64,000 bases of DNA from an uncultured bacterium. Lineage in GTDB: Bacteria; AUK180. The notes below the pieces were generated by a model that saw only the letters and a program-made list of their open reading frames with translations, searched no databases and was not told the origin of the DNA. Made by a program: the position numbers and the translations under genes. The DNA lies in assembly GCA_937863565.1 (NCBI GenBank), contig CALMGJ010000010.1, forward strand, positions 75,413 to 139,412, read 5' to 3'. This document shows, piece by piece, positions 4,855 through 61,720 of the stretch. Numbering within the stretch: position 1 is the first letter of the stretch; each line of letters begins with the position of its first letter.

Positions 4855-6007
4855 AAAGGATTCTCCTGTTCTATCCTATGTCCTCCTTATAATCACGGTC
4901 TTCTCCTCGGCTGTTAATACAGGCTTGAACGTGCTGTACTTTGTGGCCATTTTCATGACCGTCTTTTTGATCTTCGCCTATGCGAACGGAAAGGGGAATA
5001 TCAAAGGGATCGAAATAGAAAGGCATCTCGGCCGAGAATGCCGCGAGAAGGAGAAGATATTCGTTGATTACAGGATAAAGAACAAAAGACGGGCCTATTA
5101 CCTTCAGATAGAGGATGAGAAGTTCTCGTTCCTCGAGAGCGAAGATTATGCTTATGCCGGCTTCCTCGAAGCGGGTCCCGAAACAAAAGAGGTGAGGTCT
5201 TTCTATAAATTCTCGATCCCCGGCATATTCTTTCTGAAAACGTTAAAACTCCGCTCCGCTTTTCCCGCGGGTATCATTGAGTTCGAGAGGACCGTAAACA
5301 CGGAAAACGAGATCGTCGTTCTCCCGGAGACTTTCGATTTTTCCAAAGTGCCGGAGGACCTGTTCATGAACCTATCCGAGAACGAGTACTTCAAAGTCAA
5401 GATCGGTACGGGCGAGAATATTTGGGGAGTAAGGCAGTATGAATATGGAGACAGGATGAGGGATATAGACTGGAAACTCTCCGCCCGTCGCGACGATCTT
5501 ATGGTGAAGATCCGGGAACAGCCGCTCGGAAAAAGGATCTGGCTTATGCCCGTTCTGAAGGATAATGAAAGAACCGACGGCAATGCCGATGTGATAAGGA
5601 TGTGCTCTTCTCTTGCAAAGAACCGGCTCAATCAGGGCTGCTTAGTGGGCCTTCTTATGGGAGGGAGGGTCGTTTTCCCTCACGGCGGCGGCGAGCAGTT
5701 CCTTGTTCTCAGCAAGGAACTATGTTATATCTGGAATGAGAACGCTTCAATACCTGCGGCAGGCAGGATGCTTTCCGCATTATCGCCCGGGGATGTGGCG
5801 GTTCTTGTGACCAACGGTGATCCTGTGGGGCTTTCGCCCATTCTTAAGGATATGCGCAATTCATTCATCAATCCAGTGACGATACATATAGGCGATGATG
5901 TGCGGAAGATGAAGGAATATGCGGACCATTTCATCAATATCGACGAGCGCTTCTATTTCGCCCAAAAGGGAAGGATGGGGGACGTATTTGAGAATACCTT
6001 TTCTTAA
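4838..6007 (+). CDS. DUF58-domain protein (MoxR partner)
   Basis: YEYGDRMRDIDWKLSARRDDLMVK signature of DUF58; N-terminal TM helices; immediately follows MoxR. Confidence 0.8.
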   Translation: MSASPKKDSPVLSYVLLIITVFSSAVNTGLNVLYFVAIFMTVFLIFAYANGKGNIKGIEIERHLGRECREKEKIFVDYRIKNKRRAYYLQIEDEKFSFLESEDYAYAGFLEAGPETKEVRSFYKFSIPGIFFLKTLKLRSAFPAGIIEFERTVNTENEIVVLPETFDFSKVPEDLFMNLSENEYFKVKIGTGENIWGVRQYEYGDRMRDIDWKLSARRDDLMVKIREQPLGKRIWLMPVLKDNERTDGNADVIRMCSSLAKNRLNQGCLVGLLMGGRVVFPHGGGEQFLVLSKELCYIWNENASIPAAGRMLSALSPGDVAVLVTNGDPVGLSPILKDMRNSFINPVTIHIGDDVRKMKEYADHFINIDERFYFAQKGRMGDVFENTFS

Positions 6008-8057
6008 GGATAAAAGAGCTGCAGTCTATTCGCTTTTGTTCCTGCTTTTCCTGCTTTCTTCGGTCACTCTCTATCTTTATCTCGGCGGCAGTTTCTTCCG
6101 GTTCATCGCTCAAAGCGTGCTTGTCATTCTTGGTTTCAGGATTTCGTACAGGGCCGCGGGCAGGAAAGAGAGTAAACTCATTGAAAATCTTCTGGGGCTT
6201 GTGTATATAGCGGCTTTCTTCGGGCAGACGATCCTGATCTGGGAAGGATTCTACATACTCAAGGATATCTTCGCGATAGCCTTCACATGGGGTTTCGTAT
6301 GCATTTCCTTTCACGCTGTTTCAAGAAGACTCGTTCTGAACTTCTATCTGATCACGTTCATCCTCATGATATACAATGCTTCGATAGCGTATAATCTGTA
6401 TTTTCTTTTCATCCTTTTCGTTTATGCTTTTCTTTCAATTACCCTGTTCATGCTGCTCATTGTGCCTTTTGACAGGGAGTTCGCTCCTTCGGACCGCTTC
6501 GAACTGAAAAATGCCGAGATAGGCCGGATGTCGCTGCGCGCGACCGTGATCGGTTTCGCGATCACTTTGGTACTTTATATGTTCTTCCCCTTTTTCTGGA
6601 ACCTGAACTTCTTCAATCTGCCGGTGACGAAGAACCGGAACTATTTCGGTGCTCCGGATATTTCCGAGAAGTTGGTGAGCATAAGCGGATTCTCGCTGGA
6701 TTTCACTCTCAGCTCGGGGAAAGTATGGAATAATCCGCGTAAGGTAATGGAAGTAAAGACATCTCTCCCATCGTACGTTCATTATTTCAAGGGCGCCGTA
6801 TATGACACTTTCGAGGGTATGAGCTGGACGAACAAGAACACGATCCGGTATGAAGTAAGGAACCTTTCATGGCAATTCCTGCCGGAATTCAAGAAATCCC
6901 CATTCATCCATTATGAAACGGATACGCAACAGATCACGTATCTTGTCGGCATTCCCAATGTTCTTTTCTACGAAAATTATCCCAAGGTCATCCGGTTCCC
7001 GGCACGTAGCATGAGAATGGATATGAACGGCAATATCTATATCCCGCAGATACAGGAGATCCCCTTTAAATACGCCGTTGTGACTGAATTGCCGTTTGAA
7101 GTGGAGGAAAGTGCCGTTTTCTCCCCGGTTCAGGGTTTCAGGACCCATCTCAAAGTGGAAAGAGCGTCGGACAGGACCAGGGACCTGGTTCGCCGCATCG
7201 CTTCCGGCGCGGAATGCGAATACAGAAAGGCCCTTGCCATTGAGAAGTATCTTAAGGAGAATTACGAATATTCCCTTGAATTTTCTTACTCGCCTTTGAA
7301 GGAAGATATTGTGGATTATTTCCTGTTCGAATACAAAAAGGGATACTGCGAGCAATTCGCTACAGTTCTTGCCGTAATGCTTCGCCTGGCAGGTATCCCG
7401 AGCAGGGCAGTAACGGGCTTTGCGGGAGGATCTTACGATGCTTCGCGCAATGTGCTTATCCTCAGCGGCAATAATGCCCATGCGTGGGCGGAGGCTTATT
7501 TCGAAGGCGTCGGCTGGATCACGATGGATGCGACACCGGTATCGGGGATGACCGTTCCCGAATCGCGGAGAGGTTTCCTCTCCTTCCTCTCCAGGATATT
7601 CGGAACGGACCCTCAGTTACTTGTGCCCGTTAAGGTCAGGGGAGCGGTAAAGAAGGCCTTTACGGCCGTGTTCCGTTTTATCGCGGGGAATCCCTTTTTA
7701 ATGCTTCTTATCTCTGCGGCGGTGCTTCTTATCGCGCTGAGCGGACATATCATCGCTTTTCTTTCAAAGATCGCCCGGCGGAACCGGCTGGAGAATAAAA
7801 GAATCCTGATCGACGAACTGGAAAAAGCCGCTAGAAGATATCTGAAACTGAAAAGGGGGCCGGCGGATACGGAAACGGAATATTCCGGCAGGATCGTTGA
7901 ACGCGCTCCGTTCCTCTCCCGAAGCCTTACTGAATGGATAGCGGATTATCTTCGGTTCCGGTATGGGGATCCCGCCGGAAAACGCTTAACGAACGGGCTC
8001 TCGGCAGGATTGCGGGACATCAAAAAAAGATTGAAAAATTTTGAAAAAAACATATAA
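5919..8057 (+). CDS. Transglutaminase-like membrane protein (TgpA-like)
   Basis: Polytopic N-terminal membrane region; transglutaminase core YKKGYCEQFATVLAVMLRLAGIPSRAVTGF…NAHAWAEAY…DATP (Cys-His-Asp). 5' end overlaps the DUF58 gene, so the true start may be downstream (TTG near 5985). Confidence 0.8.
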   Translation: MRTISSISTSASISPKREGWGTYLRIPFLKDKRAAVYSLLFLLFLLSSVTLYLYLGGSFFRFIAQSVLVILGFRISYRAAGRKESKLIENLLGLVYIAAFFGQTILIWEGFYILKDIFAIAFTWGFVCISFHAVSRRLVLNFYLITFILMIYNASIAYNLYFLFILFVYAFLSITLFMLLIVPFDREFAPSDRFELKNAEIGRMSLRATVIGFAITLVLYMFFPFFWNLNFFNLPVTKNRNYFGAPDISEKLVSISGFSLDFTLSSGKVWNNPRKVMEVKTSLPSYVHYFKGAVYDTFEGMSWTNKNTIRYEVRNLSWQFLPEFKKSPFIHYETDTQQITYLVGIPNVLFYENYPKVIRFPARSMRMDMNGNIYIPQIQEIPFKYAVVTELPFEVEESAVFSPVQGFRTHLKVERASDRTRDLVRRIASGAECEYRKALAIEKYLKENYEYSLEFSYSPLKEDIVDYFLFEYKKGYCEQFATVLAVMLRLAGIPSRAVTGFAGGSYDASRNVLILSGNNAHAWAEAYFEGVGWITMDATPVSGMTVPESRRGFLSFLSRIFGTDPQLLVPVKVRGAVKKAFTAVFRFIAGNPFLMLLISAAVLLIALSGHIIAFLSKIARRNRLENKRILIDELEKAARRYLKLKRGPADTETEYSGRIVERAPFLSRSLTEWIADYLRFRYGDPAGKRLTNGLSAGLRDIKKRLKNFEKNI

Positions 8058-8142
8058 TATAACGGTCGTGATGGCGTACTAAAGGGAACCGACAATTTTT
8101 TTTGGGAGCTATCCCTGGGGAGGCAGTACCTCTCTAAACAGC

Positions 8143-55096: not shown

Positions 55097-56326
55097 TCAC
55101 GGCTTCCGGAAAACATTGATTAGAAAACCGCTTCTCAGTTTCGGCTCGAACCAGGTGGATTTCGGAGGCATCACCTGTCCCGCGTCCGCTATCCCGATGA
55201 GTTCTCCTATCGATGTCGGGAACATCGAGAATGCTACGGCGAACTCTCCCGAAGCCACTCTTTTTTCGAGCTCTCCGGTACCTCTGATCCCGCCCACGAA
55301 ATCGATCCTTTTATCCGTTTTAGGGTCCTTGATCCCGAGAACGGGATCGAGTATGCTGTTCTGGACGATATAGGAATCGAGTTTTTTAACGGGGTCCTTC
55401 TCCTCAATGAATGCCTTCTTCGCAATTAAAAGGTGCCATTTTCCGTCAAGGAACATTCCGAACTGATGCCTTTTGCGGGGCCTGCCTTTCCAGGCCTGTT
55501 TCATTTCTCCGATGGTGAACCGTTCACCGAGCTTTTCGATGAACTGGTCTTTGGTAAGTCCGTTCAGATCCTTCACAAGGCGGTTGTAATCGAGGATATT
55601 GAGCTCTTTATCCGGGAAGAACACGGCGAGGAAATGCTCCGTTTCGGGAGTTTTCATATCGCGGTATGTCTGGGCTGCCGCCTCGCTTCTGTGATGTCCG
55701 TCCGCGATGTACAGCGCATCGAGTTTGCCGAATTCCGCCACGATCTTTTCGATCAGGGTTTCGTCCTCTATCTTCCAGACCTTGTGCGTGATCTTGTCCG
55801 TGAATGTCACATCATAAAGAGGTTCGCCCTTCTGGACCTTCTTCACCATCGAAGAAACGGCATTACTCTTCTTGTAGGTAAGAAAGACCGGCCCGGCATT
55901 CGCTCCGGTGGTTTTAACATGCTTTGTTCTGTCGACCACCTTTTTTGTCAACGTGTGTTCGTGCTTTTTGATCTTGCCTTCATCGTACTCCTTTGCCGAA
56001 GCGAGTCCCACGATCCCGCTTTGAAAATGATCGCCCATCTTCTGGCTGTATATGTAAAGGCAGGGTTTATCCTCCTCGATCAGGTTTTTAGCGTCTATGA
56101 GCTTTTTGAAGTTCTCCAGGGCTTTTTTATATACTTCCTCACTGTACAGGTCGGTCCCTTCGGGCAGGTCGATCTCCGGTTTTACAACATGTAAAAATGA
56201 GAAGGGATTGTCTTTGGCGATCTCCTTCGCCTCACGGGAGTTGACGACATCATAGGGGAAGGAAGGGATCTTGTCCTCGTACCCTTTTGCAGGTCTGAAG
56301 GCTCTAAAAGGTCTGATAATAGACAT
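55097..56326 (-). CDS. DUF1015-domain protein
   Basis: MSIIRPFRAFRP…FPYDVV N-terminus typical of DUF1015. Preferred start is 56326 with GAGGT RBS (ORF tracker 56341). Confidence 0.8.
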   Translation of the reverse strand: MSIIRPFRAFRPAKGYEDKIPSFPYDVVNSREAKEIAKDNPFSFLHVVKPEIDLPEGTDLYSEEVYKKALENFKKLIDAKNLIEEDKPCLYIYSQKMGDHFQSGIVGLASAKEYDEGKIKKHEHTLTKKVVDRTKHVKTTGANAGPVFLTYKKSNAVSSMVKKVQKGEPLYDVTFTDKITHKVWKIEDETLIEKIVAEFGKLDALYIADGHHRSEAAAQTYRDMKTPETEHFLAVFFPDKELNILDYNRLVKDLNGLTKDQFIEKLGERFTIGEMKQAWKGRPRKRHQFGMFLDGKWHLLIAKKAFIEEKDPVKKLDSYIVQNSILDPVLGIKDPKTDKRIDFVGGIRGTGELEKRVASGEFAVAFSMFPTSIGELIGIADAGQVMPPKSTWFEPKLRSGFLINVFRKP

Positions 56327-56455
56327 GGCAATACCTCGCATGAAAATTTTTATTGATTATATAACATTATTTTTTAAAGTCAAGCGAAGAATGGTCCCCG
56401 TGATACGGGAAATGGGAAGGCATTCCATTTTCTAAAAAAAAATTATAAAAAATAC

Positions 56456-56484
56456 TTGACATTTGCACATATGTGCGTTATAAT
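56456..56484 (+). promoter_or_regulatory. Consensus sigma70 promoter (TTGACA-17-TATAAT) with embedded perfect 12-bp palindrome GCACATATGTGC (candidate operator)
   Basis: TTGACA 56456–56461; palindrome 56465–56476 within the spacer; TATAAT 56479–56484. Confidence 0.75.
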
Positions 56485-56512: not shown

Positions 56513-56965
56513 ATGCCAAGACCAAGGAACTGCAGGAACATCAAAGGACCGCCTCTTATTTCCGCCTTTAAACCGGTAGGAACACCCGCGCGGTGTCTGA
56601 AGAGCGTAACCATAAGTTTAGATGAATTCGAAGCTATCAGACTTGCCGATCATGAAGGACTGGAACATGAGGAAGCTTCAAAACTGCTCGGTATCTCACG
56701 TTCGGTATTCACGCGTCTGGTTGAGAAAGCGAGGCAAAAGATAGCCGATGCCCTGATCAATGGTTGCGCTATCATAATAGAGGGCGGCGATTATCATTTT
56801 CAGTGTGATTATTACAGGTGTTTGAAATGTTTTGCGGTCATAGAAAGATCATTTTCGGAAAACCCGCCGGTCAATTGCCCGAACTGCGGTTCAGAGGATA
56901 TCAAACATCTCAATGAACATTACGGCGGAAGAGGGCACTGCCGAAGACATGGCGGGAATATTTAA
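56513..56965 (+). CDS. DUF134 (UPF0251) predicted DNA-binding protein
   Basis: N-terminus MPRPRNCRNIKGPPLISAFKPVG…, central helix-turn-helix-like region, C-terminal Cys cluster CPNCGS…H; 150 aa. Confidence 0.75.
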   Translation: MPRPRNCRNIKGPPLISAFKPVGTPARCLKSVTISLDEFEAIRLADHEGLEHEEASKLLGISRSVFTRLVEKARQKIADALINGCAIIIEGGDYHFQCDYYRCLKCFAVIERSFSENPPVNCPNCGSEDIKHLNEHYGGRGHCRRHGGNI

Positions 56966-56977
56966 TAGGAGGTTATC

Positions 56978-57325
56978 ATGCCTGGTATGAACGGAACTGG
57001 GCCCCTCGGAGAGGGATCGATGACAGGAAGAGCAATGGGCCGCTGCAATCCTTCGGCGAACAATGGAACGCCTTTGGGTAATTTTTTTGGCAGACTCGGT
57101 CTCGGAAGACGCTTCGGCTTCGGCCGCGGTTTCGGCTTCGGCCGCGGTATTGGCTTTGGCCGCGGTTGCGGCTATGGACGCGGTTTCGGCTATGCAGCGC
57201 GGGGATTTTTCCCATATGCTCCGGATGCAAAAAGCGAACTCGAATCCCTGAAAGCGGAAAAGAAACTACTTGAGGAAGAGATCAAACGATTGGAAGCGGC
57301 TGAAAGCGGTCCGGAAAACAAATAA
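56978..57325 (+). CDS. Gly/Arg/Phe-repeat coiled-coil protein (DUF5320-like)
   Basis: N-terminus MPGMNGTGPLG…MTGRAMGRC; (F/Y)G(F/Y)GRG repeats; C-terminal coiled coil LESLKAEKKLLEEEIKRLEAAE; 115 aa. Confidence 0.7.
   Translation: MPGMNGTGPLGEGSMTGRAMGRCNPSANNGTPLGNFFGRLGLGRRFGFGRGFGFGRGIGFGRGCGYGRGFGYAARGFFPYAPDAKSELESLKAEKKLLEEEIKRLEAAESGPENK
57101..57190 (+). repeat. About 18-bp tandem DNA repeat (ttcggcttcggccgcggt-like, about 5 imperfect copies) encoding the GFGRG units
   Basis: Direct repeats visible in sequence 57101–57190. Confidence 0.7.
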
Positions 57326-58171
57326 TTGAAGATCGCTTTTGCAAGCGGGAAGGGCGGCACCGGCAAGACCGCCCTTTCCGTCAATTTCGCATTATTCTGC
57401 GCGGAAGAGGAACACACGCTTCTTTTGGACCTTGATGTTGAGGAACCGGATGTCCTCAATTTCATTCCACGAGCGGAAATGCTCAATAAAAGAGAGATCA
57501 GCGTCAGGATCCCCGATATTGACAAAGAAAAATGCGACCTTTGCGGCAATTGCGTTAAAGCGTGCAATTTCAATGCGCTGCTTCTTTCAAGAGAAGAGGT
57601 GAAGATCTTCCCCCAGCTTTGCAAGAACTGTTTGGCCTGCGCCGATGTCTGTCCGCGGGATGCCGTTACATTCAAAGAGAAAAGGATAGGAGAGGTCAGC
57701 TCTTTCGGAAGCGACCGGCTCGACCTGATCGAGGGCAGGCTCGATATCGGCGACATACACACCAAAACAATGATCTCGGAAGCAAAAAGATCGGTTTTTA
57801 AAGAATACGATACCGTTATATACGATTGCCCGCCGGGCACCACCTGCCCTATGGTGGAAGCTGTGGTTGACGCGGATTATGCCGCGCTTGTGGCGGAACC
57901 CACTTTGTTCGGCCTTTGCGATCTGGAACTGGCCGTTTCGGCATTGCAGAAAATGAAAAAACCATTCGGCATCATTATCAATAAATCGGAAGAGAATAAC
58001 GATATTATTAAAAAATACTGCATGGATAACGGCATTGTGATACTTGCGGACATCCCTTTTGACGAAGAGGTCTTCAAAAGATACGCGGAGGGGAGGGACC
58101 TGGTAAGTCTGAAATGGTACAAAGGCAAGATGGCCCAGCTCCGACTCAATATAATGAAGGCTGCCCGATGA
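57326..58171 (+). CDS. MinD/Mrp-family P-loop ATPase with inserted 2×[4Fe-4S] ferredoxin domain (copy 1)
   Basis: Deviant Walker A ASGKGGTGKT; CDLCGNCVKAC and CKNCLACADVCP motifs; TTG start right after the upstream stop. Confidence 0.85.
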   Translation: MKIAFASGKGGTGKTALSVNFALFCAEEEHTLLLDLDVEEPDVLNFIPRAEMLNKREISVRIPDIDKEKCDLCGNCVKACNFNALLLSREEVKIFPQLCKNCLACADVCPRDAVTFKEKRIGEVSSFGSDRLDLIEGRLDIGDIHTKTMISEAKRSVFKEYDTVIYDCPPGTTCPMVEAVVDADYAALVAEPTLFGLCDLELAVSALQKMKKPFGIIINKSEENNDIIKKYCMDNGIVILADIPFDEEVFKRYAEGRDLVSLKWYKGKMAQLRLNIMKAAR

Positions 58172-59064
58172 AACAGATAGCTTTCGCAAGCGGAAAAGGC
58201 GGAGCGGGAAAAACCACCCTTTCCGCGGCTTTCTTCGATCATGTGGCAAGCATGTCCGTATTTGCGGATTGCGATGTTGATGCTTCGGACGCCTTCATCC
58301 TTCTGGAGAAGAGGACCCTTTCATCGGAACCTTTCGAATCCGGGTATAAATACGAAATAGAACAGGATAAATGCACTTCCTGCGGCATATGTCGGGAAAA
58401 ATGCGTTTTCGGAGCGATAAAGATAGAGAACGGGAAATATCTTATAGACCTTTTTAAATGCGAGGGCTGCGGGAGATGCGCTTTGGCTTGTCCGGCCGCC
58501 GCCATAAAGAAAGAAAAGAACTACTGCGGGGATATCTTCAATGCCGAAACACACGGCGGTCATCCGATGGCATATGCCCGGTTTTTCCCCGCGGAAGACA
58601 ATTCGGGTAAACTGGCAAGTAAAGTGAGGATGCGCGCCGTAGCGCAAATGATAAAGGAGAAACGGTCCCTCATCGTGATAGATTCGCCGCCGGGCACCGG
58701 CTGTCCCCTTACTGCGAGCATCACCGGCATTGACTTTCTTGTGGTTGTGATAGAATGTACGATGTCCGGCTTTTCTGATGCGCAGCGTCTCATAGAGCTT
58801 GCAGAGAAGATGAAGATCCCCGTGATGGCAGTATTGAACAAAACAGGCCCGGATGATCTTACTCTTGAAAAAGCCAAAAGGATGCTTGCAGAAAAAGGCA
58901 TTCCCCTTGCGGGCAAGATACCTTTCACAAAAGAGGTGAGCAGTCTTATAAATAGAAAAAAACTCATAACGGATACGGCAGACCCCGCATTGAAGACCGT
59001 TATCGAAAGGATATTTGCCGAGATCTGCCGTTTATCGGGAATAGAAAAAAGGAGTGAAATATGA
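58168..59064 (+). CDS. MinD/Mrp-family P-loop ATPase with inserted 2×[4Fe-4S] ferredoxin domain (copy 2)
   Basis: ASGKGGAGKT; CTSCGICREKC and CEGCGRCALACP. Preferred start is ATG 58168 in ATGA overlap (ORF tracker 58114). Confidence 0.85.
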   Translation: MKQIAFASGKGGAGKTTLSAAFFDHVASMSVFADCDVDASDAFILLEKRTLSSEPFESGYKYEIEQDKCTSCGICREKCVFGAIKIENGKYLIDLFKCEGCGRCALACPAAAIKKEKNYCGDIFNAETHGGHPMAYARFFPAEDNSGKLASKVRMRAVAQMIKEKRSLIVIDSPPGTGCPLTASITGIDFLVVVIECTMSGFSDAQRLIELAEKMKIPVMAVLNKTGPDDLTLEKAKRMLAEKGIPLAGKIPFTKEVSSLINRKKLITDTADPALKTVIERIFAEICRLSGIEKRSEI

Positions 59065-59387
59065 AAATAGCAGTGGCAACGAACGACAAGACCAGCGTAA
59101 ACCGCGAATTTGCAAGAGCCCTTTTTTTTGCGCTCTACGATGACAGCGGTAAAACATTTGATTTTTTGGATAACTCGGAATCCCAGAACGCCGCTCACGG
59201 CGCAGGCATCATGGCCGCCAATACATTGAAAAAAAATTCAGTGGATGCGGTCCTTGCTTTTCAGCTTGGCCCCAAAGCGCTTGACGGATTGAAAACCAAT
59301 GGTATAAAGATCTTCAGGGTCAATGCAGGCGTTGCTTTGACTGAAGCGGTGAAGATGTACGAAGAGGGCAAACTCGGGGAATACTGA
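59061..59387 (+). CDS. NifX/NifB-C-like (dinitrogenase FeMo-cofactor-binding fold) protein, copy 1
   Basis: 108 aa; MKIAVATND…G…F…D pattern typical of the Nitro_FeMo-Co family; ATGA overlap. Confidence 0.7.
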   Translation: MKIAVATNDKTSVNREFARALFFALYDDSGKTFDFLDNSESQNAAHGAGIMAANTLKKNSVDAVLAFQLGPKALDGLKTNGIKIFRVNAGVALTEAVKMYEEGKLGEY

Positions 59388-59392
59388 AAGAT

Positions 59393-60187
59393 ATGCAGAT
59401 CACCGTACTTGCCGAGAACAAAGCGGGTAAAGGGGCATATGCCGCCGAACACGGCCTTTCCCTTCATATCGTTCACGGAGAATACACTGTTCTTTTCGAT
59501 ACGGGACAGAGCGGGCTTTTTTCCGAGAACGCCCTTAAAGCCGGCACGGATATCACGTCTGTTCATGCCTCTGTTCTGAGCCACGGCCATTACGACCATG
59601 CCGGGGGGCTTCCAAGATTTATGGAGCTGAACTGCCGCGCACGGATCTTTATGAAGAAGGAAGCCTTGATCCCGAAATACTCCGCGGACGGACGTTTTAT
59701 CGGTACGGACCTGCAAGCTGACAAGGAGAGGTTCTCGTTCATCGACAAACAGTTTGAATTAACTGAAGGGCTTTGGATCATTCCCTCTATTGAAATATTC
59801 GATCAAGATGACACGAACTGCTCGGGTTTTTTCATAGATGACGGACAGGATCTCAGGGCGGATATGTTCGAAGACGAGCTTTTTCTCGCAGCCATGACCG
59901 AAGAAGGCCTGACCGTGATCACGGGATGTTCGCACAGGGGAATAACAAATATCGTTCATACCGCAAAAAGGATATTCAAAAGCCCTGTTGCAGCGGCGAT
60001 CGGCGGTTTTCATCTGAAGGCAAGGTCAGCAGATGAAGTGAGAAGAAAGGCGCTGGCACTGAAAAAAGCGGGATTGAAACGCATTGAAACAGGGCATTGC
60101 ACCGGAAGGGAGAGCCTACGGGAATTGAAAGAGGTCTTCGGGGCGGGTCTCGGAGAGCTTTTCTGCGGAAAGAAAATAAAAATCTGA
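59393..60187 (+). CDS. MBL-fold metallo-hydrolase
   Basis: HGHYDHAGGL motif; 264 aa. Confidence 0.8.
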   Translation: MQITVLAENKAGKGAYAAEHGLSLHIVHGEYTVLFDTGQSGLFSENALKAGTDITSVHASVLSHGHYDHAGGLPRFMELNCRARIFMKKEALIPKYSADGRFIGTDLQADKERFSFIDKQFELTEGLWIIPSIEIFDQDDTNCSGFFIDDGQDLRADMFEDELFLAAMTEEGLTVITGCSHRGITNIVHTAKRIFKSPVAAAIGGFHLKARSADEVRRKALALKKAGLKRIETGHCTGRESLRELKEVFGAGLGELFCGKKIKI

Positions 60188-60198
60188 AGGAGAAGATA

Positions 60199-60546
60199 AT
60201 GGGAACGGAAAAAGTCAGGATCGCCATACCCGTAGTGGGAGGCGCAATAAGCGAGCATTTCGGTCATTCGGAAAAATTCGAGGTGTACACGGTCAAGGAC
60301 GGAAAGATCGAAGGCAGTGAGGACCTGGTCCCGCCGCCGCATGAACCGGGCGTGATTCCGAAATGGCTGAACGGGATCGGGGCGAATGTGATCATCACGG
60401 GCGGCATAGGAAGAAAAGCCGTGGAACTTTTCAATTCATACGGTATAACGGTTGTTTCGGGAGTATCTGCCATGACGGCCCGCGAAGCGGCAGAGAAATA
60501 TGTAGAAGGTAACCTTGATTCCACGGGAGAGACCTGTTCGCATTAG
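60199..60546 (+). CDS. NifX/NifB-C-like (FeMo-cofactor-binding fold) protein, copy 2
   Basis: MGTEKVRIAIPVVGG…HFGHSEKFEVY…; start ATG 60199 with GAAGGAG RBS (ORF-tracker start 60097 would overlap the MBL gene). Confidence 0.7.
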   Translation: MGTEKVRIAIPVVGGAISEHFGHSEKFEVYTVKDGKIEGSEDLVPPPHEPGVIPKWLNGIGANVIITGGIGRKAVELFNSYGITVVSGVSAMTAREAAEKYVEGNLDSTGETCSH

Positions 60547-60610
60547 GCTCCGCACCCGTTTTATAAAAACCGCTTTTTATGATATAATCTCAAAAATGGA
60601 GGTCGTCTCT

Positions 60611-61720
60611 ATGAAATGCGGCAGATCCCTCATCTTTGCTCTCGTCTCCCTGCTTTTCATTCTTTCTTCCTGCAAAAGGACCCTTGTCATTGACGATAAT
60701 GCCATAGAGATAAATAAGCTCACCGGCAGCGCCAAAAGTTTCTATGAAGGCAATGATCAGACAGTTTTCCGAACATTCATCCTGGACGGCAACTCGCATT
60801 TCATAATTGCCGAAGAGGATAAACTTGCCTATCTCGGGCGCTATCTCGACAGAATTCGGTATTATGAGGAGAACGGGACCTATAAGCATGTCATACTGCC
60901 CTATGAGAAGCAGTTCGCCGGCCCGGATGATGTCTCCCTCGTTTATGAGAGGAATCTCAGCACACAGAAAGTGTCTTCCGTTGATAATGACCTTCAGACG
61001 AAATTGAACATGAGCATAGACGAGATGATCGTCAAGCTCGGGAAATTGAAACCCCTTACCGAAGATAGAAAGGCGGAGATAAAAGCGTCCGTTTCCGCGC
61101 GTTTCAAAGGGGTTTTCAGAAAGACCAGATCTGTGAAAACGGATGTTTTCCTCTATCAGGTGCGCACCGAACTTCTCGATAAGATAAAAAAAGGCCACGA
61201 GGATCAAAAAGAGCTCATCTCGGAAATAGAGATGAAAAAGAAAAGTTTCATCACGAAGATCCTCATTGCACGGGTCAGTTCCGGCTACACGAAGGATTCG
61301 GGGATAGTCACCGAACTTGCCGCGGAATGGAAGGCGGTCCTGGGAGAGCACGGCCTGGACGCGGGGGATGCTTTCAATATGGAATTGAAGAGCCACTGCG
61401 AGAAGATAAGTCAGCCGCATTATATAATGCTCGGTTACGGTGTGGACATAACCGATTCGATAGAAAACGCTTGCCTTGAAGATCCGGAACATTTCGCAAG
61501 CTCGCTTTTTCCCATAGTCAAAATACCGGGGATACGCTCTCTCGTGGGCGGCGGCACTAAATCACTCGAAGACAAGAAAGATATGTCCGGGGAGGAAAAT
61601 GAGGAAGGTCTGATCGGCTCTCCCGCCGAGGAGGAAATAATGATGAATACCGATGCAATTAATAGGATATTGGAGAATAAGAAGATATCAACCGAAGATC
61701 TCATCAGATCTCTGGAATAG
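60611..61720 (+). CDS. Lipoprotein of unknown function
   Basis: Lipobox signal MKCGRSLIFALVSLLFILSSC; GGAGG RBS 8 nt upstream of ATG 60611; Lys/Glu-rich; 369 aa. Confidence 0.65.
   Translation: MKCGRSLIFALVSLLFILSSCKRTLVIDDNAIEINKLTGSAKSFYEGNDQTVFRTFILDGNSHFIIAEEDKLAYLGRYLDRIRYYEENGTYKHVILPYEKQFAGPDDVSLVYERNLSTQKVSSVDNDLQTKLNMSIDEMIVKLGKLKPLTEDRKAEIKASVSARFKGVFRKTRSVKTDVFLYQVRTELLDKIKKGHEDQKELISEIEMKKKSFITKILIARVSSGYTKDSGIVTELAAEWKAVLGEHGLDAGDAFNMELKSHCEKISQPHYIMLGYGVDITDSIENACLEDPEHFASSLFPIVKIPGIRSLVGGGTKSLEDKKDMSGEENEEGLIGSPAEEEIMMNTDAINRILENKKISTEDLIRSLE

Follow-up and report, generated by a model that had tools for sequence, protein, structure and literature searches.

A DUF5320 protein with a cationic Gly/Arg/aromatic repeat encoded in an ORP-like gene cluster of an uncultured AUK180 bacterium

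The DUF5320 gene and its operon

Analysis of a 64,000-nucleotide stretch of DNA from an uncultured bacterium (GTDB lineage Bacteria; AUK180; NCBI GenBank assembly GCA_937863565.1, contig CALMGJ010000010.1, positions 75,413 to 139,412 of the forward strand), referred to here as the window, revealed a gene encoding a small repeat-containing protein at positions 56978..57325 (+). The initial annotation of this gene, made without database searches, had described a Gly/Arg/aromatic-repeat protein with a C-terminal coiled coil, and the translation that it quoted was found to match the sequence exactly. It had also suggested a hidden Markov model search against DUF5320, and a Pfam scan indeed assigned the 115-aa product to this family (PF17253; 69 bits versus a cutoff of 27; E=8.5e-19), with aa 1-107 aligned to positions 1-94 of the 99 profile positions. 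None of the NCBIfam models matched the DUF5320 protein. The window contains no second DUF5320 gene, and no Rfam families or tRNAs were found in it. A putative Shine-Dalgarno sequence, AGGAGG, was read from the sequence at 56967..56972 (+), 5 nt 5' of the ATG start codon, and the TAA stop codon abuts the TTG start codon of the next gene at 57326. An antisense open reading frame (ORF) at 56976-57230 overlaps the gene and was rejected as a side product of the GC-rich codons in the repeat.

The DUF5320 gene is the second of a tight seven-gene operon, in which the genes are separated by gaps of 0 to 12 nt or overlap by 4 nt. A site at 56456..56484 (+) matches the sigma-70 consensus TTGACA-17-TATAAT in 12 of 12 positions, precedes the start of the first gene by 29 nt, and is the probable operon promoter. 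Gene 1 (56513..56965, +) encodes a DUF134 protein (PF02001, 100.6 bits), a putative helix-turn-helix (HTH) DNA-binding protein; its matches to HTH, sigma-70 region 4, and zinc-ribbon models were weak and below the cutoffs. The C terminus of this protein carries a four-Cys segment resembling a zinc ribbon and a GGRGHCRRHGG tail. Gene 3 (57326..58171, +; TTG start) encodes a MinD/ParA-type P-loop ATPase with a 2x[4Fe-4S] ferredoxin insert that resembles Orp3 and Orp4 of Desulfovibrio vulgaris. Gene 4 (58168..59064, +) encodes a second MinD/ParA-type Fe-S ATPase with a 2x[4Fe-4S] insert. The ORF listed for gene 4 spans 58114-59064 (+), and the ATG at 58168 (MKQIAFASGKGG, a conserved N terminus), which gives a 4-nt ATGA overlap with the stop codon of gene 3, is the likelier start. 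These products identify the putative DNA-binding protein and the Fe-S ATPases between which the initial annotation had placed the repeat protein.

The remaining genes of the operon encode a NifX-like (Nitro_FeMo-Co) small protein (gene 5; 59061..59387, +; PF02579, 63.5 bits), a metallo-beta-lactamase (MBL)-fold protein recognized by domain search (gene 6; 59393..60187, +), and a second NifX-like protein (gene 7; 60199..60546, +). The gene 7 product resembles the C-terminal domain of MrpORP and keeps its VPPPHEPG motif; it aligned to positions 263-365 of NF041136 (E=1e-31), a match far under the whole-protein cutoff. Its sequence ISEHFGHSEKF has Ser at both Cys positions of the published CxHFGHCE motif, so the protein may not bind the cluster described for MrpORP. 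Directly past the operon lies a 401-aa ORF (60515-61720, +) with no Pfam match, in which a lipoprotein-like signal (MKCGRSLIFALVSLLFILSSC) comes after an internal Met; its product may be a lipoprotein. On the other side of the operon, an 11/12 match to the sigma-70 consensus at 56383-56356 (-) faces a DUF1015 gene (55097-56341, -), and the 171-nt DUF1015/DUF134 intergenic region thus resembles a putative back-to-back pair of strong promoters.

Family conservation, protein architecture, and the tandem repeat

Homology searches placed the protein in a large family. A total of 176 homologues were found in 5.8 billion protein clusters, and PF17253 was annotated on 120 of 120 among the matches listed. 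When 1.84 billion cluster representatives (50% identity) were searched with a profile, 12,249 members passed E<=1e-3, of which 5,245 also passed E<=1e-10. The family build consists of an N-terminal motif, a cationic Gly/Arg/aromatic repeat, and an acidic coiled coil. Aromatic-Gly-Arg repeats, which had been called unusual in bacteria, are therefore the defining trait of a family whose clusters, found in anaerobic bacteria and archaea, number more than 12,000. The family motif begins at residue 1 and reads M1 P2 x G4 D5 [RG]6 T7 G8 P9 x G11 x G13 P14 M15 T16 G17 R18 x x G21 [YF]22 C23; M1, P2, G8, P9, G13, G17, G21, and C23 are conserved in approximately 100% of 220 full-length members. Homologues sharing an MPG…GTGP…MTGR motif, on which the initial annotation had made its description depend, number in the thousands. 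Judged by its sequence, the window gene is a real but ordinary DUF5320 member.

The N-terminal motif of the window protein (aa 1-25, MPGMNGTGPLGEGSMTGRAMGRCNP; 56978..57052, +) includes the invariant Cys23 at 57044-57046. It keeps M1, P2, T7, G8, P9, G11, G13, T16, G17, R18, G21, and C23 and departs from the family at positions 4, 5, 14, 22, 24, and 25. It represents a minority variant, with M4, N5, R22, N24, and P25 in place of G, D, Y/F, A, and G. The nearest motifs were found in the Brevinematales protein P0013 and in the Nitratidesulfovibrio protein encoded at the orp5 position described below (83% identity over aa 1-23). In one subfamily, to which P0237 and P0243 belong, the N-terminal motif is doubled. 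In length, RG count, and aromatic count, the window protein is near the family medians.

The motif is followed by the cationic Gly/Arg/aromatic repeat region (aa 38-76; 57089..57205, +), which is predicted to be disordered and has a net charge of +8, an isoelectric point (pI) of 12, and a composition of 44% Gly, 21% aromatic residues, and 21% Arg/Lys. The net charge of the middle region is positive in 220 of 220 full-length members (median, +6), and that of the last 38 residues is negative in 90% of the 220 (median, -3; window protein, -3). An AlphaFold2 model built with a 56-sequence alignment predicted residues 1-80 to be disordered (pLDDT [predicted local distance difference test] score, 43-52) and contained a single confident helix at residues 84-110 (57227..57307, +; pLDDT 81-97, mostly >90). 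This amphipathic C-terminal helix probably forms a short leucine-zipper coiled coil, with Leu91, Leu98, and Leu105 at 7-residue spacing, and the family consensus shows a regular a/d heptad pattern in the same helix. The model thus agrees with the coiled coil proposed initially. The accompanying suggestion that two Cys in the repeat could ligate metal did not hold in that form, because Cys23 (GRC) belongs to the N-terminal motif and Cys64 (GCGYG), the second Cys of the window protein, is absent from most members; exactly one Cys is present in 189 of 266 family members. The Protein Data Bank (PDB) was also searched by profile; the matches were solely chance ones due to low complexity or coiled coils, the strongest having E = 0.006 and that to the ATPase inhibitor IF1 having E = 0.013, and no solved structure in it is related to the DUF5320 protein. 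The disordered Arg/Gly/aromatic composition resembles that of eukaryotic RGG/RG and FG regions, to which there is no sequence relationship.

At the DNA level, the repeat is encoded by an 18-bp tandem array at 57113..57191 (+). Tandem Repeats Finder (TRF) reported 4.4 copies with a period of 18, 85% matches, and a score of 109. The array codes for four and a half F/I/C-G-F/Y-G-R-G hexapeptides, pattern (Φ-G-Φ-G-R-G)n, with one CCGCGG palindrome in each full unit, and is preceded by a degenerate unit at 57095-57112 (LGLGRR). Given this additional unit, the earlier estimate of about 5 copies at 57101–57190 was a fair one. In 500 codon shuffles of the gene, in which amino acid and codon content were kept, the top TRF score was 56, indicating that composition alone is not the cause of the array. 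Arg is encoded by CGC in 5 of 5 units, compared with a CGC share of 0.16 among the Arg codons in the long ORFs of the window, and the Gly after Arg is encoded by GGT in 5 of 5 units (window-wide share, 0.17). These common synonymous codons indicate that DNA duplication, not convergence of the protein sequence, gave rise to the repeat. Among 90 DUF5320 genes in genomic loci that were likewise scored by TRF, 36 had scores of >=30, 13 reached 50, and 1 reached 90. The array is more homogeneous than those of nearly all relatives, which suggests a recent duplication. The palindromes permit hairpins in the RNA, and the predicted folding was no better than that of shuffles (z = +0.92); a terminator-like match at 57123-57148 was rejected as an artifact of the same tandem repeat.

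The initial annotation had called the locus slippage-prone and length-variable. Since the unit length is a multiple of 3, slippage would alter protein length and keep the reading frame. The exact protein is not on record as an identical sequence, and no close relatives for a comparison of copy number were present in the collections searched, in which the best homologue had 41-47% identity. Thirteen clusters of >=90% identity from elsewhere in the family were aligned instead. Of 12 internal indels, 11 fell inside the Gly/Arg repeat, with sizes of 1 to 4 residues, mostly 2 or 4. Repeat length thus does vary among close relatives elsewhere in the family, but in these clusters not by whole 6-residue units.

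The low complexity of the repeat, the overlapping antisense ORF, and the unusual homogeneity of the array could be taken to mean that the ORF is a chance reading frame over a GC-rich repeat or a hypervariable contingency locus without a conserved role. This is extremely improbable. The ORF has a strong ribosome-binding site and is translationally coupled to the next gene, it matches a family of more than 12,000 clusters over its full length with invariant residues outside the repeat, its operon position is conserved, and slippage in its repeat would stay in frame. The conservation of the family in practice refutes the non-gene reading.

Gene neighborhoods and domain fusions across genomes

The genomic context of the family was analyzed in 80 loci, one genome per species, of which 77 have a DUF5320 gene. 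The loci span Bacillota, Desulfobacterota, Planctomycetota, Omnitrophota, Atribacterota, Spirochaetota, Bacteroidales, Chloroflexota, Methanosarcina, and other archaea. Neighboring genes within 5 kb were counted by single-sequence searches with the window's own flanking proteins, so that the counts are lower bounds. A MinD-type Fe-S ATPase gene or a NifX-like gene is present in at least 59 of the 77 loci, and both are present in at least 51. DUF134 genes were detected in at least 21 loci and MBL-fold genes in at least 9. Directly downstream of DUF5320, 27 loci have a NifX-like gene and 14 have a gene for a MinD-type Fe-S ATPase.

The same partner domains were found in domain fusions. In four loci, Nitro_FeMo-Co is followed by the DUF5320 repeat and coiled coil in one polypeptide, with both domains above the Pfam cutoffs. 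Three of these fusions are from Dehalococcoidia (L042:6292-6930, L054:3981-4616, and L071:6900-7454), and the fourth, from Pirellulales (L076:7592-8518), carries an additional 2x[4Fe-4S] domain. In these proteins, the NifX-like domain takes the place of the N-terminal motif and its Cys. In P0402 and P0458, the N-terminal motif and the repeat are followed by a 2x[4Fe-4S] ferredoxin domain that replaces the coiled coil; P0458 is without the motif Cys. A third arrangement combines DUF134, the MPxGDGTGP motif, and an RG-rich tail; it occurs in Methanosarcinaceae (L019:5233-5826 and L032:1056-1676, where a Cys-rich ribbon follows) and in Desulfosarcina (L011:336-929). The Gly/Arg repeat is the sole module present in every fusion arrangement.

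Among the loci in which no ORP-like genes were detected around DUF5320, several contain other genes for metal handling. In L038, a short DUF5320 gene (6001-6201; 66 aa, without the coiled coil) is located 8 nt before feoB (6209-8101), the usual position of feoA, and the gene for a DtxR-family iron repressor lies 1.3 kb upstream. The DUF5320 gene follows an EncFtn-like gene in L010, precedes moaA in L055, and follows genes for an OrpR-like activator and a NifX-like protein in L061. The NifX and ferredoxin fusions together with the Fe and Mo gene neighborhoods point to metal handling, and the overall evidence favors metal handling over the rival explanations. The scaffold or adaptor function suggested initially fits both the conserved gene neighborhood and the fusions. 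As a separate observation, a gene for an ARMT1-like/DUF89 damage-control phosphatase occurs near DUF5320 in 14 of the 80 loci (e.g., L046:3405-4250, L058:6827-7729, and L076:5107-6000) and is thus an accessory component of such clusters; the window operon does not contain one.

The association with DUF134 raises the question of whether DUF5320 proteins are RGG-type nucleic acid binders that work with DUF134 in regulation, either as coregulators or as RNA or G-quadruplex binders. The DUF5320 gene lies directly downstream of DUF134 in the window, the two are fused in the three proteins named above, and a scan of Methanosarcina mazei for an RG-rich quadruplex motif flagged a DUF134 and a DUF5320 protein (PMC7565180). 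This role is nevertheless quite improbable, since most DUF5320 loci have no DUF134 in the neighborhood, and about three quarters of them have NifX-like or Fe-S ATPase genes there. In addition, the DNA-binding role of DUF134 derives from weak HTH matches, the quadruplex link is a motif match only, and the NifX and ferredoxin fusions with the Fe and Mo neighborhoods indicate metal handling.

The position of the gene next to an ATPase gene, here and in 14 of the 77 loci, suggests another alternative. ParA/MinD ATPases usually have small, often disordered partner proteins; McdB, for example, is small and partly disordered, self-associates, and works as the partner to a ParA-type ATPase. DUF5320 could likewise be a partner of the two ATPases in the manner of MinE, the ParB N-terminal peptide, or McdB, in which the conserved N-terminal peptide would stimulate ATP hydrolysis and the repeat and coiled coil would self-associate or condense and be positioned by the ATPases, e.g., at a pole or septum. 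Cationic disorder beside an acidic helix is a self-association type of sequence, and the likeness to McdB-type partners is one of composition and gene context only, with no sequence relationship. In D. vulgaris, proteins of the orange protein (ORP) complex have been tied to cell morphology and polar localization (PMC6345978). A function of this kind is unlikely, however, because the commonest direct neighbor and fusion partner is the NifX-like domain and not the ATPase, no ATPase fusion was seen among the fusions found, and some DUF5320 loci have no detectable MinD-type Fe-S ATPase in the locus sequence.

Relationship to Orp5 and a possible role in metal-sulfur handling

The ORP complex of D. 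vulgaris Hildenborough comprises Orp3 and Orp4, which are MinD-like ATPases with ferredoxin motifs, Orp5, Orp8, and Orp9; Orp8 is the NifX-like orange protein, Orp9 is MrpORP, and Orp5 was pulled down with Orp3, Orp4, Orp8, and Orp9 (PMC6345978). The complex is encoded by the operons orp5-orp4-orp3 and orp7-orp8-orp9 on either side of orpR (PMC6345978, PMC8359166), and OrpR homologues have been assigned to Deltaproteobacteria (PMC8359166). In locus L029 from a Nitratidesulfovibrio sp., a DUF5320 gene occupies the orp5 position, between a divergent sigma-54 activator gene and two ATPase genes. The activator has a PAS domain and a GAFTDA motif, as listed for DVU2106, and the genes on its other side encode an Orp7-like protein, an ORP, and an MrpORP. 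The L029 protein at the orp5 position matched DUF5320 at 28.4 bits, and its relatives in other Nitratidesulfovibrio species carry the NCBI name DUF5320. The published figure of the orp5-operon promoter of strain Hildenborough ends with AAGGAGCACAT ATG CCA TAC GGA GAT G, which encodes M-P-Y-G-D, as at the beginning of the DUF5320 motif (PMC3897727 supplement). The layout of the ribosome-binding site in L029 is the same (AGGAGGCGCAT ATG CCT GGC ATG AAC). The orp5 position in L029 and the MPYGD start suggest that Orp5 is probably a DUF5320 protein and, hence, that a member of this family was probably pulled down with ATPases and NifX-like proteins. In the searchable literature, DUF5320 has never been connected with Orp5.

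Like the ORP genes, the window DUF5320 gene is positioned directly 5' of two genes for MinD-type 2x[4Fe-4S] ATPases and close to NifX-like genes. Unlike the D. vulgaris system, the window has neither OrpR, nor Mrp/NBP35 (Orp9), nor a divergent second operon; its single operon is of sigma-70 type, is led by DUF134, and includes an MBL-fold gene. The Nitratidesulfovibrio proteins also differ from the window protein in having the helix mid-protein and the RG repeat at the C terminus. The gene order is thus that of orp5, but OrpR/sigma-54 control and MrpORP are lacking, so that "ORP-like cluster" is the better label.

The identity of Orp5 also bears on the possibility that DUF5320 is itself a small Fe-S protein, in which Cys23, here with Cys64, of two or four chains would ligate a [2Fe-2S] or [4Fe-4S] cluster at an oligomer interface and the protein would act as a carrier or sensor. 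Cys23 shows no variation in the family, the partners are without exception Fe-S or metal-cluster proteins, and the coiled coil would gather the single Cys from several chains. Moreover, Orp5 has been stated to be homologous to Dde_3197 of D. alaskensis, a small [2Fe-2S]-binding protein of an ORP operon (PMC6345978, citing Maiti 2016). The papers disagree on Dde_3197, whose best named match is reported elsewhere to be a Nitro_FeMo-Co protein (PMC10533852), so it may be an Orp7-like protein and not a DUF5320 protein. Homology searches seeded with Desulfovibrionaceae proteins retrieved neither Dde_3197 nor DVU2105, the Orp5 of strain Hildenborough. A cluster-ligating function is rather unlikely for further reasons: 71% of members have a single Cys, the DUF5320 part of the NifX fusions has none, P0458 is without the motif Cys, and approximately 60 disordered residues separate Cys23 from the coiled coil.

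A different use of the Cys and the repeat is suggested by proteins that hold metal-sulfur species noncovalently. The NifX-like domain does so with inorganic species, namely, a Mo-Cu cluster in the orange protein and an Fe-S cluster in the C-terminal domain of MrpORP (PMC6345978). IssA (PF2025) from Pyrococcus furiosus is a thioferrate iron-sulfur storage protein in which an IPR003731 domain is followed by an unstructured tail (PMC5524996). This tail is cationic and rich in Arg, aromatic residues, and Gly, holds the only Cys of the protein, and has been proposed to wrap anionic thioferrate electrostatically (PMC5524996). By description, the window repeat resembles the IssA tail in being unstructured, cationic, and Gly/aromatic-rich, with a high pI, few Cys, and an association with IPR003731/Nitro_FeMo-Co. 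Unlike in IssA, DUF5320 is separate from the NifX-like domain, and two other genes of the operon encode Nitro_FeMo-Co instead; the description of IssA includes neither an N-terminal MPxGDxTGP motif nor a coiled coil. Lacking a NifX-like domain, the DUF5320 protein does not qualify as an IssA, and by analogy it may act like the IssA tail in trans.

Taken together, the preferred explanation is that the DUF5320 protein is a nonenzymatic, disordered, cationic adaptor subunit of an ORP-like metal-sulfur complex of ATPases and NifX-like carriers, a role that appears about as likely to be right as wrong. In such a complex, the coiled coil would make the protein oligomeric and multivalent. The N-terminal Cys motif would serve either as a docking element for a partner or as the source of a thiolate ligand, and electrostatic attraction would bind the cationic repeat to anionic metal-sulfur cargo or to acidic surfaces on partners, as proposed for the IssA tail. 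We infer complex membership in the window organism as well as every step of this mechanism.

Several points weigh against the adaptor role. The putative identity of Orp5 as a DUF5320 protein rests on five DVU2105 codons and synteny, and binding of metal-sulfur species by the repeat would be a matter of pure analogy. The window contains neither an OrpR gene nor an Mrp/NBP35 gene, and in their stead has the sigma-70-type site and DUF134; no gene for an enhancer-binding protein (EBP) lies next to the operon. The NifX fusions without the motif Cys indicate that the thiolate is dispensable in some contexts, and the DUF134–DUF5320 fusions leave room for a regulatory role. In the searchable literature, DUF5320 is mentioned in only two papers, in passing each time, with no experiment on a verified member.

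A more specific form of the analogy is doubtful at present. DUF5320 proteins might be free-standing IssA tails, that is, oligomeric one-thiolate polycations that would wrap or nucleate anionic metal-sulfide, such as thioferrate-like chains or thiometallate clusters, and pass it between NifX-like carriers and Fe-S ATPases, possibly in a condensate-like state. If true, the widespread and anaerobe-specific ORP-type systems would gain a chemical job, the storage and trafficking of preformed metal-sulfur material.

The window gene alone adds little, as both its DUF5320 product and its ORP-like operon are of the typical kind. Of greater interest is the family as a whole. Anaerobic bacteria and archaea contribute more than 12,000 clusters to it at 50% identity, yet it is nearly absent from the searchable literature. 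Its proteins are mostly disordered, an uncommon property among conserved proteins of prokaryotes, and gene neighborhood as well as fusions link them to NifX-like cluster carriers and to Fe-S ATPases. The probable link between DUF5320 and Orp5 and the parallel to the IssA tail lead to testable hypotheses on how anaerobes may handle metal-sulfur species.

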